Part shown: positions 60,687-62,192 of the stretch, piece by piece
Layout of the letters: every line of letters starts with the position of its first letter
Numbering within the stretch: the first letter of the stretch is position 1
Assembly (NCBI GenBank): GCA_947361355.1
Contig: CANAIR010000003.1
Coordinates: 1,467 to 65,466 of the forward strand
Direction: 5' to 3'
DNA length: 64,000 nt
DNA from: an uncultured Clostridium sp.
GTDB taxonomy: Bacteria; Bacillota; Clostridia; TANB77; CAG-465
Notes under the pieces: model-generated
Database searches by the model: none
The model's input: the letters and a program-made list of their open reading frames with translations, nothing else
Told to the model about the DNA's origin: nothing
Program-made: the position numbers and the translations under genes

Positions 60687-60991
60687 GATATACCTCCTTT
60701 TTATAATTTAAAAATGATAACAACATAACTATAATTATATTATATCATTTTATATAAATTATGTCAATTAAATCAACAGATATACAATAATAATTGTGTA
60801 TTTAATTTTATAGAAATTTAAATTAGATTTTAATTTAGTAGAAGTAGTTATAATTATTATCTAATATATTTTATAATGATTTTACTATAAATATCAATAT
60901 TAGTTTTACAGTATAATAATGCTTGATGTATTGGTATAAAAATGTTATAATAAAAACACCTACTCTTAGGGAGAGAGGAGGTGCTTATTTA

Positions 60992-61066
60992 ATGGCTGAA
61001 CTAATTGTTGTACTATTTCTTATGTTGTTGATTACAATAGAATCAAATCGTAGAAATAGTAAATAG
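60992..61066 (+). CDS. 24-aa hydrophobic peptide, putative type I toxin (module A)
   Basis: MAELIVVLFLMLLITIESNRRNSK. GGAGG SD 11 nt upstream, pairable with the 5' CACCTACTCT (9 of 10 bp). Confidence 0.5.
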   Translation: MAELIVVLFLMLLITIESNRRNSK

Positions 61067-61134
61067 CTAAAATAGTAGTTAGTATGTTCTAGTGCTAACT
61101 ACTATTATTTTATGTAAAAAATATTTATATATAC

Positions 61135-61206
61135 AAAAAAGGAAGATAGTTCTAGATATCTTCCTACTTATTTAACTTTGAACTAATTATTGCAACATAT
61201 TGTTGT
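61135..61206 (-). ncRNA. predicted convergent antitoxin-like sRNA (module A)
   Basis: Runs from the consensus minus-strand promoter to the hairpin GGAAGATA/TATCTTCC (61141-64) followed by T6. It carries the complements of CTTATTTAA and GAACTAATT from the toxin translation initiation region. Confidence 0.5.
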
Positions 61207-61385
61207 ATTTATATTATAACATTTTTGGTTATAATTGTCAAATTTTTTTACTATAAAAAATATAACAATGATTAATTTATATACATATAAATAGTATTCT
61301 TATTAGTATAATTATACTTGATATACAAGTATAAAAATGTTATAATAAAAACACCTACTCTTTAGGTAGAAAGAGAGGTGTACTC

Positions 61386-61457
61386 ATGAGTGAAACCATT
61401 ATATTACTTATTCTATTAATAATTCTTATAAGAGAACTTAATAAAAAGAATAAGTAG
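61386..61457 (+). CDS. 23-aa hydrophobic peptide, putative type I toxin (module B)
   Basis: MSETIILLILLIILIRELNKKNK. The SD is AGAGGTG. A terminator lies at 61465-61499. Confidence 0.5.
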   Translation: MSETIILLILLIILIRELNKKNK

Positions 61458-61520
61458 CTTGAAAAGTAATAGAAGCGGTAACTTCTATTACTTATTTTAT
61501 GTAGAAAAATATATTATATA

Positions 61521-61591
61521 CAAAAAAGATAAGACAGCGGTAACCATCTTATCTTGTACTATGAGTTTTAACCATTATATAACAACGTTGT
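61521..61591 (-). ncRNA. predicted convergent antitoxin-like sRNA (module B)
   Basis: Promoter as described for the module. Hairpin AAGATAAGA/TCTTATCTT (61526-55) followed by a T-run. It carries the complements of GTACT-ATGAGT and AACCATTATAT from the toxin translation initiation region. Confidence 0.5.
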
Positions 61592-61637
61592 ATTTATATT
61601 ATAACATTTTTGGTTATACTTGTCAAACTTTTTATGC

Positions 61638-61666
61638 AAAAAATGTTGTAATAAAAAATACCTAGC
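61638..61666 (+). repeat. fragment of a sixth module (toxin -10 and 5' UTR only)
   Basis: AAAAATGTTGTAATAAAAAATACCTAGC is about 80% identical to AAAAATGTTATAATAAAAACACCTACTC. It is cut off next to the tRNA fragment. Confidence 0.45.
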
Positions 61667-61686
61667 ATAAGCTAAGTATCAATAAC

Positions 61687-61737
61687 TGGTGCCCCAGAAG
61701 CGATTCGAACGCCCGACCCACGGCTTAGAAGGCACTC
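61687..61737 (-). pseudogene. 3' fragment of a tRNA-Arg(TCT) gene (anticodon loop to CCA), att-site-like remnant
   Basis: The reverse complement reads ..CTTCTAA(anticodon loop)..GGGCG-TTCGAAT-CGCTT (T arm)-CTGGGGC-A-CCA. There is no matching 5' acceptor strand or D arm upstream. Confidence 0.65.
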
Positions 61738-61983
61738 ATTTAATATAAAAGTTCTATGTAAGCATTTTCAAAGACTTATGCTATATAATAAACAAATTAA
61801 TATATATAGTCCAATCATCTTAAATTATGATAATTATATCATAATAATTGTTATTATTCAATACTTTGTATGATAATTTTTCTATACATATAAATAATAT
61901 TAATTAGTACAATTATACTTGATGTATCAGTATAAAATGTTATAATAAAAACACCTACTCGGTAAGAGAGGAGGTGAGCTAAA

Positions 61984-62058
61984 TTGACCGACACAATAAT
62001 AATTCTATTTCTTATGCTTTTAATTATAATAGAGCTAAATAAAAGAAATAGAAAATAA
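61984..62058 (+). CDS. 24-aa hydrophobic peptide, putative type I toxin (module C, TTG start)
   Basis: (M)TDTIIILFLMLLIIIELNKRNRK. GGAGG SD 9 nt upstream. Terminator at 62064-62098. Confidence 0.45.
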   Translation: MTDTIIILFLMLLIIIELNKRNRK

Positions 62059-62120
62059 CACAAAGTAGTCTAGTTACAGCTAGACTACTATTATTTTATG
62101 CAAAATATTAATATATATAC

Positions 62121-62192
62121 AAAAAATGAGAAGATAGTTACAGCTATCTTCTCGAACTAAATTGACCGATTAATTGTACAACATCTTGTTGT
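62121..62192 (-). ncRNA. predicted convergent antitoxin-like sRNA (module C)
   Basis: Hairpin GAGAAGATAG/CTATCTTCTC (62128-53) followed by T6. It carries the complement of the 13-mer CTAAATTGACCGA, which spans the toxin start codon. Confidence 0.5.

Follow-up and report, generated by a model that had tools for sequence, protein, structure and literature searches.

How could several paralogous genes, each with its own antisense regulator, lie side by side and still answer only to their own? The question is raised by the final 3.1 kb (24% GC) of the window, by which we mean the whole 64,000-nt stretch analysed here, from contig CANAIR010000003.1 of an uncultured Clostridium sp. The segment holds five paralogous modules (A–E). 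An invariant 25-mer of the promoter and 5′ untranslated region (5′ UTR), AATGTTATAATAAAARCACCTACTC, is present in all five on the + strand, at 60941, 61336, 61936, 62347 and 63758 (matches expected by chance from shuffles, 0), and a profile search of the window returned no sixth copy. The complete modules A, B and C, as aligned, extend over 60915–61245, 61310–61630 and 61911–62231. We consider it probable that the five are type I toxin-antitoxin modules of the par design, in which a small RNA (sRNA) would recognise its target mRNA through two sites specific to each class.

Start-codon repeats and predicted cognate pairing

The sequence-only reading had proposed that, within each module, short sequences around the toxin start codon recur in the same orientation inside the sRNA gene on the opposite strand. 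We found the repeats of all three complete modules. In module A, CTTATTTAA lies at 60984–60992, where its final A is the A of the ATG, and again at 61167–61175, 1 nt away from the 61166–74 originally given; GAACTAATT lies at 60998–61006 and 61180–61188 and lengthens to a 14-mer (TGAACTAATTgTTG, 60997–61010, versus TGAACTAATTaTTG, 61179–61192; 13/14 identical). Copy 1, in the translation-initiation region (CTTATTTAA plus TGAACTAATTGTTG), spans 60984–61010, and copy 2, within the sRNA A gene, 61167–61192 (both given on the + strand, as are all repeat copies below). In module B, GTACT(C)ATGAGT at 61380–61391 corresponds to 61556–61566 as a block of 6 + 6 nt with a one-base bulge, and AACCATTATAT at 61394–61404 recurs at 61570–61580, lengthening to 14 nt (13/14 identical). 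The whole first copy (GTACTCATGAGT ... AACCATTATATTAC) runs across the ATG from 61380 to 61407, and the second lies within the sRNA B gene at 61556–61583. In module C the 13-mer CTAAATTGACCGA, found at 61979–61991 and 62157–62169, lengthens to 16 nt (15/16 identical); the extended copy GAGCTAAATTGACCGA covers the TTG start at 61976–61991 and its partner lies within the sRNA C gene at 62154–62169. A C-type box is also present in D (62376–62391) and in E (63787–63802 and 63965–63980). One 9-mer of the start-codon box of module C, GAGCTAAAT (61976–61984), occurs once more at 62032–62040, near the 3′ end of the open reading frame (ORF), and likewise in D and E; this additional copy could be a weak extra sRNA site or chance.

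The sole complete relative found by pattern scans, referred to as L048, is an IMG/VR temperate-phage contig that carries an integrase, a CI-like repressor, RuvC and NinB. It encodes the toxin MVENIILIVVLIFFIRELKH and, at ~160 nt, a longer sRNA. Like A and B it has two repeat blocks, while C, D and E have one. Lone 9-mers do recur by chance in this AT-rich DNA (unrelated 9-mer repeats were found in the same scan), but collinear blocks at a fixed offset of 176–183 nt do not, according to an empirical positional test. Local-alignment scores were computed for 20,000 random window positions, with segment length (40 nt) and downstream interval kept as in the modules; the module score was reached by a fraction of 0.005 for A, 0.0014 for B, 0.0026 for C, 0.0007 for E and 0.028 for L048 (joint probability over the four independent classes ~5e-10). 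Contrary to the earlier statement, the repeats of A, B and C are not entirely different from one another, since GAACTAA is common to A and C. A, B and C each have an address of their own, whereas C, D and E form one specificity class, D being without an sRNA gene.

Each second copy is located between a 12/12 consensus − strand promoter and a − strand terminator, inside the predicted transcript, as had been proposed; hence, an RNA of ~72 nt would carry the complement of its own toxin's initiation region. Promoter and terminator scans combined with folding place sRNA A (~74 nt) at 61206 to 61133, sRNA B (~72 nt) at 61591 to 61520 and sRNA C (~73 nt) at 62192 to 62120, all on the − strand. In single-RNA folds the anti-initiation core is unpaired and abuts the terminator hairpin in sRNAs A and C, and the 5′ part of the core is folded into a short predicted hairpin in sRNA B. 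On the mRNA side, the start-codon region is unpaired directly 3′ of the hairpin that holds the Shine-Dalgarno (SD) sequence in each mRNA.

We compared cognate and non-cognate pairs with RNAcofold, using ddG = E(AB) − E(A) − E(B) in kcal/mol. Cognate values (A, −22.9; B, −22.6; C, −22.1; L048, −26.5) are cleanly separated from those of non-cognate pairs (−2.4 to −11.9), and the predicted cognate duplex lies over the start codon in agreement with the sequence-only reading. In dinucleotide shuffles of the sRNA or its core (200 each; means −4.8 to −8.3, standard deviation ~2.5–3.1) the observed ddG was reached 0–1 times. Applied to full-length RNAs, RNAduplex was too permissive for such AT-rich sequence, returning long interior loops, and was left out of the verdict. 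The proposed insulation of the modules is predicted between classes A, B and C, which cross-pair weakly within the non-cognate range (sRNA C on mRNA A, −9.6), but not within the class C/D/E, where cross values reach −19.5 to −22.0.

Aligned on the start codon, the duplexes span about −9 to +19. At 18 of the 30 mRNA positions that are paired in at least one class, both strands have changed between classes and pairing is kept (n = 4 classes: A, B, C/D/E and L048). Such compensatory covariation is what the sequence-only reading had expected of RNA–RNA pairing under selection. Moreover, where the two repeat copies of L048 differ, some of the changes are T to C in the copy within the sRNA gene; these give G-U wobbles in the RNA and hence point to a constraint at the RNA level, not the DNA level. 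The repeats of modules A and B are invariant across same-species contigs (Logan, ENA), and no population-level covariation was therefore seen there.

Terminator-loop repeats and the proposed two-step contact

A second element co-varies with the first. We found that the apices of the mRNA and sRNA terminator hairpins form direct repeats of 7–12 nt within each module. In A, the apical GTTCTAG at 61086–61092 of the mRNA terminator (61071–61106, + strand) recurs at 61149–61155; the latter is the + strand reading of the apical CTAGAAC in the sRNA A terminator (61165–61140), which follows a 5′ hairpin and the single-stranded core in that RNA. In B, AGCGGTAAC occupies 61474–61482 in the mRNA terminator (61464–61493, + strand) and 61536–61544 in the sRNA terminator (61555–61526); in C, TAGTTACAGCTA occupies 62071–62082 in the mRNA terminator (62064–62089, + strand) and 62135–62146 in the sRNA terminator (62153–62128), and is identical in D and E. 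The L048 repeat is TTTGCCC. The longest + strand string common to both terminator hairpins measures 7, 9, 12 and 7 nt in the cognate pairs (A, B, C/D/E and L048) and at most 6 nt in non-cognate ones, and duplex energies of the apical segments are −8.8 to −13.0 versus +1.1 to −6.5. The matches are always centred on both loops, while the hairpin stems are unrelated. Complementary terminator apices fit the requirement for a loop–loop kissing contact between the RNAs, a contact with which RNA I–RNA II binding begins in par (PMC7472228).

The 3′ arms of the sRNA terminators (+ strand 61140–61148, 61526–61537 and 62128–62137) are pyrimidine tracts, CUAUCUUCC, CUGUCUUAUCUU and CUAUCUUCUC, complementary to the purine-rich SD tracts. 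RNAduplex pairs cognate and some non-cognate combinations of these, and the tracts may be a shared anti-SD element or mere composition. An Rfam cmscan of 58000–64000 at E ≤ 10 returned no antitoxin family, only spurious miRNA, snoRNA and Y-RNA-like matches.

In the mechanism that we propose, an mRNA of ~150 nt on the + strand would encode a peptide made of a hydrophobic helix with a basic tail, its SD held in a 5′ hairpin and its start-codon region (about −9 to +19) predicted to be single-stranded just 3′ of that hairpin. A convergent sRNA of ~72 nt from a consensus promoter would begin with a small 5′ hairpin, continue as a single-stranded core and end in a terminator hairpin of its own. Contact would start at the terminators, whose apical loops would kiss over 7–12 nt, and the sRNA core would then form a duplex of 16–26 bp across the start codon and block 30S binding; the sRNA–mRNA duplex is possibly an RNase III substrate. 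Since both address elements differ between A, B, C/D/E and L048 and match within a class, an sRNA should silence its own class only.

The strongest competitor, in our view unlikely, is that these are true par-type cis-antisense pairs: the sRNA would read through its own terminator into that of the mRNA, giving a 3′ overlap like that of pAD1 par. Its separate terminator would then serve only for processing or attenuation, with the start-codon repeats still in the role of DRa/DRb. The mRNA terminators of C, D and E do score on the − strand too, the terminator of sRNA E has a weak tail (ATGTTTGTAT), and the known Gram-positive families with a 3′-side antisense RNA all overlap the mRNA (PMC8594479). 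However, the − strand terminators of sRNAs A, B and C and of the L048 sRNA are strong and include runs of 6 U. Read-through would also render the whole mRNA terminator complementary, which leaves no reason for the sRNA apex to track the mRNA loop in four classes.

Module architecture, peptides and genomic setting

All complete modules share one order. A + strand TG-extended promoter is followed by a 5′ hairpin closed by ACCU/AGGU and enclosing the SD, an ORF of 23–24 amino acids and a + strand terminator; then come a hairpin that terminates well only on the − strand, the copy of the start-codon region, a small hairpin and the − strand promoter. The mRNA and sRNA terminators are 33–38 nt apart, and the terminator scan gave 16 terminator-like sites in the region against 0.5 expected. 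Transcription would be convergent. The + strand promoters of A (TTGATG-17-TATAAT, TG-extended, in the shared 25-mer region), B and C lie at 60923–60951, 61318–61346 and 61919–61946. The − strand promoters of sRNAs A, B and C, at 61241–61213, 61626–61598 and 62227–62199, each read TTGACA-17-TATAAT, a 12/12 consensus with a TG extension. In three same-species metagenome contigs (L005, L006 and L007) the −10 box of toxin A reads TATAAC instead of TATAAT, a T-to-C change at the equivalent of window position 60951; apart from this, module A is invariant across samples. Toxin and sRNA promoters have a common 22-nt core, AAAAATGTTATAATA(A/T)AAA(C/T)AC, in the form of inverted repeats that are 77–91% complementary (61333–61354 versus 61205–61226 and 61590–61611; 61933–61954 versus 62191–62212); therefore, the convergent genes have near-identical promoters and initial transcribed sequences.

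Minimum free energy (MFE) folds give the ACCU/AGGU-closed hairpin with an enclosed GGAGG or GAGG in A (60958–60982, + strand, GGAGG), B, C and L048, and leave only 3–4 bp of it in the D and E mRNAs. RNAalifold on the 5′ hairpins returned no structure, MAFFT having misaligned the indel-rich arms, and single-sequence folds were used instead.

The three intact ORFs, all on the + strand, encode MAELIVVLFLMLLITIESNRRNSK (A, 60992–61066, 24 amino acids, ATG start), MSETIILLILLIILIRELNKKNK (B, 61386–61457, 23 amino acids) and MTDTIIILFLMLLIIIELNKRNRK (C, 61984–62058, 24 amino acids, TTG start). These peptides of 23–24 amino acids have a hydrophobic core and a basic tail, and the module peptides are of the generic type I kind (hydrophobic, shorter than 60 amino acids, charged C-terminus; PMC6563280). 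Pro, Gly, Cys and Trp are absent from all six aligned peptides, which have neither a PXXXG(C) motif nor a conserved Trp. The proportions of synonymous and non-synonymous differences (pS/pN) are 0.75/0.25 for B versus C, 1.06/0.27 for L048 versus B and 0.27/0.07 for L048 versus its truncated relative L099, with peptide A left out of the comparisons. The peptide is thus kept while the DNA diverges and synonymous change is saturated, which supports coding. A tblastn search of PLSDB found nothing, and neither an antisense ORF of 69 amino acids nor the 42-amino-acid variant of E described below has a homologue in protein databases. Genes of 24 amino acids are overlooked by annotation, and the related contig L014 is without any gene call in this region.

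Modules D and E are probably decaying copies. D (62329–62489, + strand) retains a promoter, a shortened 5′ hairpin, the C-type box, an ORF (62384–62458) and a terminator (62464–62489) and has lost its sRNA half. A remnant of an IS200-like Y1 transposase (62 amino acids, Pfam Y1_Tnp) lies at 62626–62814 on the − strand, ~140 nt 3′ of the D terminator and near the expected site of the D sRNA gene. Downstream of this remnant is a structured segment (62821–62942) with a weak Rfam match to STnc490. The mRNA part of E (63758–63901, + strand) has a −10 box (63763–63768), no −35 box, the C-type box, an ORF (63795–63923) and a terminator (63876–63901). An extra A in the A-run 63861–63867 before the stop (7 versus 6) shifts the frame, and the resulting ORF of 42 amino acids reads through the terminator. 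The predicted sRNA E (63931–64000, − strand) has its terminator at 63964–63939 and the second C-type box immediately upstream; its 5′ end and promoter lie beyond the window. The same 15-nt deletion of the inner 5′ hairpin is found in D (62360–62386) and E (63771–63797), leaving CACC/GGUG. With its C-type boxes retained, D should remain a target of sRNAs C and E (ddG −20.5 and −19.5).

Could the ORFs instead be harmless small membrane proteins or untranslated, and the pairs ordinary riboregulated genes or decaying repeats? We regard this as improbable. It would accommodate peptides that match no family and have no homologue in protein databases, the degeneration of D and E, and the −10 mutation of the toxin A promoter in some strains. 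Promoter-down and frameshift variants, however, are also expected where a toxic gene loses its antitoxin, as in D and E, and the shape of the peptide, the tandem amplification, the convergent and constitutive-looking sRNA promoter, the SD hairpin and the phage or hot-spot location are all hallmarks of type I systems (PMC6563280, PMC7472228).

The modules flank a 3′ fragment of a tRNA-Arg gene at 61687–61733 on the − strand, ending ...CUGGGGCACCA, with a terminator at 61657–61680. Its anticodon loop, read from the sequence, is CUUCUAA, i.e. UCU; ARAGORN called no tRNA at 61687–61733. A related strain (contigs L014 and L015) has identical modules A and B; its sequence diverges 14 nt into the fragment and continues into a prophage with an integrase. 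In the window, different DNA with modules C–E follows the fragment, which places A and B on the conserved side and C–E on the variable side. A prophage junction inside the tRNA-Arg fragment indicates an attachment site, and hence that the modules sit at an integration hot spot. Among same-species Logan contigs carrying the neighbouring gene of 169 amino acids (L001–L010, L016–L018 and L136–L145), most end in or beside a 21-mer of the shared promoter and 5′ UTR, which points to several copies of the module family in many of the strains sampled; most of the remaining same-species contigs end inside module A. An exact 22-mer of the shared promoter and 5′ UTR had 0 matches in genome, viral and metagenome collections, and blastn of the modules against PLSDB and INPHARED returned only the tRNA-Arg fragment and chance AT-rich stretches.

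Given this setting, the repeats could be passive DNA without an RNA role (duplication leftovers, gene-conversion tracts or target-site duplications of small mobile elements), as might be suggested by the short AT-rich repeats common in this DNA and by the tRNA fragment and IS200 remnant of a hot spot for recombination and insertion, but this is very improbable: passive copies would decay independently, whereas here both stay matched in four classes that differ at most positions, a second, unlinked match of 7–12 nt is kept at two hairpin apices with unrelated stems, and the T-to-C changes of L048 give the wobbles that an RNA-level constraint predicts. Target-site duplication was ruled out, the repeats being internal to the conserved module and not at its edges.

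Some further features lie nearby. The sequence AAAAATGTTGTAATAAAAA at 61639–61657, 3′ of module B, is similar to the module promoter core and may be what is left of another module cut off at the tRNA fragment. A strong hairpin, AUAUCCACUGGUA...UACCAGUGGAUAU (58461–58511), whose Rfam miRNA score is spurious, stands at the 3′ end of a beta-CASP/metallo-beta-lactamase gene of 490 amino acids and is most simply the terminator of that gene. The closest genome matches of the beta-CASP protein have 28% identity. Pfam domains in the surrounding genes (Cu_amine_oxidN1, SH3_3 and PcrA) suggest a Firmicutes-type chromosome.

Relation to known type I systems

The reading that we prefer, of type I modules with a class-specific two-site sRNA, has to be weighed against several observations that speak against it. 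Scanned with relaxed patterns, genome, metagenome and viral collections yielded phage terminators or coding DNA for the most part, and only L048 and the truncated L099 as real relatives; no more than four independent specificity classes could be assembled. All transcript ends are consensus predictions. Non-cognate ddG values can be sizeable in such AT-rich RNAs (sRNA B on the D and E mRNAs, −10.1 and −11.9), and cofolding is unable to model kissing complexes. A YUNR U-turn, read from the sequences, is found only in the loops of A (CUAG) and L048 (UUUG); in par this motif promotes kissing, and it is absent from some par homologues (PMC7472228). Toxins C, D and E start with TTG, and D and E look degenerate, so that not every copy need function. 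Finally, no Pfam or NCBIfam model matches the module peptides, and the label "toxin" therefore depends on size, hydrophobicity, the charged tail and context. Beyond the sequences, the predicted signals, the energies and the covariation, we infer the transcription boundaries, the order of binding, the translational block and toxicity, and also that the modules may stabilise or defend the integration hot spot or prophage.

The closest known system is par (Fst-RNA I-RNA II of E. faecalis pAD1). As there, the promoters converge, direct repeats lie over the initiation region, the SD is predicted to be sequestered in a 5′ stem-loop, and the terminator loops could make contact; in both RNAs the initiation-region element is 5′ and the loop element 3′. 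The likeness to DRa/DRb noted in the sequence-only reading agrees with the published description of par (PMC7472228). There, the repeats are poorly conserved between loci, which makes antitoxins locus-specific, and pAD1 RNA II gives no protection against EF0409 RNA I (PMC7472228). However, the modules have two separate terminators with unrelated stems (e.g. 61071–61106 and 61140–61165) where par has one shared bidirectional terminator that makes the 3′ stem-loops of its two RNAs fully complementary; therefore, the module RNAs are predicted not to overlap, with only the 7–12 apical nt complementary. The module peptide, at 20–25 amino acids versus ~33, lacks PXXXG(C) and the conserved Trp, no Pfam Fst, NCBIfam or Rfam model matches, and in module C a single continuous box stands in place of a DRa/DRb pair. 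Membership in par is unsupported, given the terminators, the missing peptide motifs and the absence of family matches. As far as their sequences go, the modules are best described as the par design in a new, non-overlapping form, with a mini-toxin that is as yet unclassified.

In the T1TAdb survey, every Gram-positive family whose antisense RNA lies on the 3′ side has it overlapping the mRNA, and non-overlapping arrangements are 5′-divergent and Gram-negative (PMC8594479); by this pattern, a convergent non-overlapping arrangement would be a new variant. SprA1/SprA1AS (PepA1) of S. aureus resembles the modules in that the non-overlapping part of a 3′-side antisense RNA pairs with the initiation region and is functionally trans-acting (PMC8594479), but its 3′ ends overlap and its toxin belongs to the Fst superfamily. 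The enterobacterial zorO-orzO/zorP-orzP, tisB-istR1, shoB-ohsC and dinQ-agrB systems likewise have an adjacent, non-overlapping sRNA with a complementary box of ~18 nt. The duplicated zor/orz loci discriminate by a few nucleotides of the V1 region, and 15 continuous or 17 discontinuous pairs are needed (PMC3919570). In these Gram-negative systems, however, the sRNA is divergent and 5′ of the toxin, pairing is in the 5′ UTR and no loop–loop second site is described, whereas the module sRNA, encoded convergently on the 3′ side, is predicted to pair across the start codon.

Paralogous families are known as well. Ibs/Sib is a multicopy type I family in which an antitoxin neutralises its cognate toxin only. 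The same holds for SprG/SprF 1–4, paralogous toxin-sRNA pairs in one genome (PMC6393307). In both, specificity follows automatically from cis-antisense overlap, while the modules would need co-evolution of separate boxes. The prophage- and CRISPR-associated type I systems of Clostridioides difficile resemble the modules in their low-GC Firmicutes-type host, prophage-like location, convergent genes and toxins without homology elsewhere, but those toxins have 34–59 amino acids and the antitoxins overlap the toxin gene (PMC6563280).

It is conceivable, at a little less than even confidence, that the modules represent an undescribed type I family of low-GC bacteria and temperate phages, with a convergent trans-acting antitoxin, a two-part and freely evolvable address, at least four orthogonal pairs (three at one hot spot) and an orphan D that relies on the sRNAs of its neighbours. 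The current picture of type I systems would be unchanged, as locus-specific repeats and cognate-only antitoxins are already known for par, Zor/Orz and SprG/SprF. Judged by their sequences, the modules are a clean natural case of two-site sRNA–mRNA co-evolution, a principle that is itself known. Should this be confirmed, the locus would amount to a natural experiment, on a small scale, in the evolution of antisense specificity: two short boxes are rewritten together on a background that is kept, namely the promoters, the 5′ portion of the mRNA hairpin and the majority of the sRNA 5′ hairpins and terminator stems. It would bear on how duplicated type I systems avoid cross-talk, extend type I systems by a family from low-GC bacteria of the gut or the environment, which are poorly sampled, and offer a ready-made set of orthogonal riboregulators.

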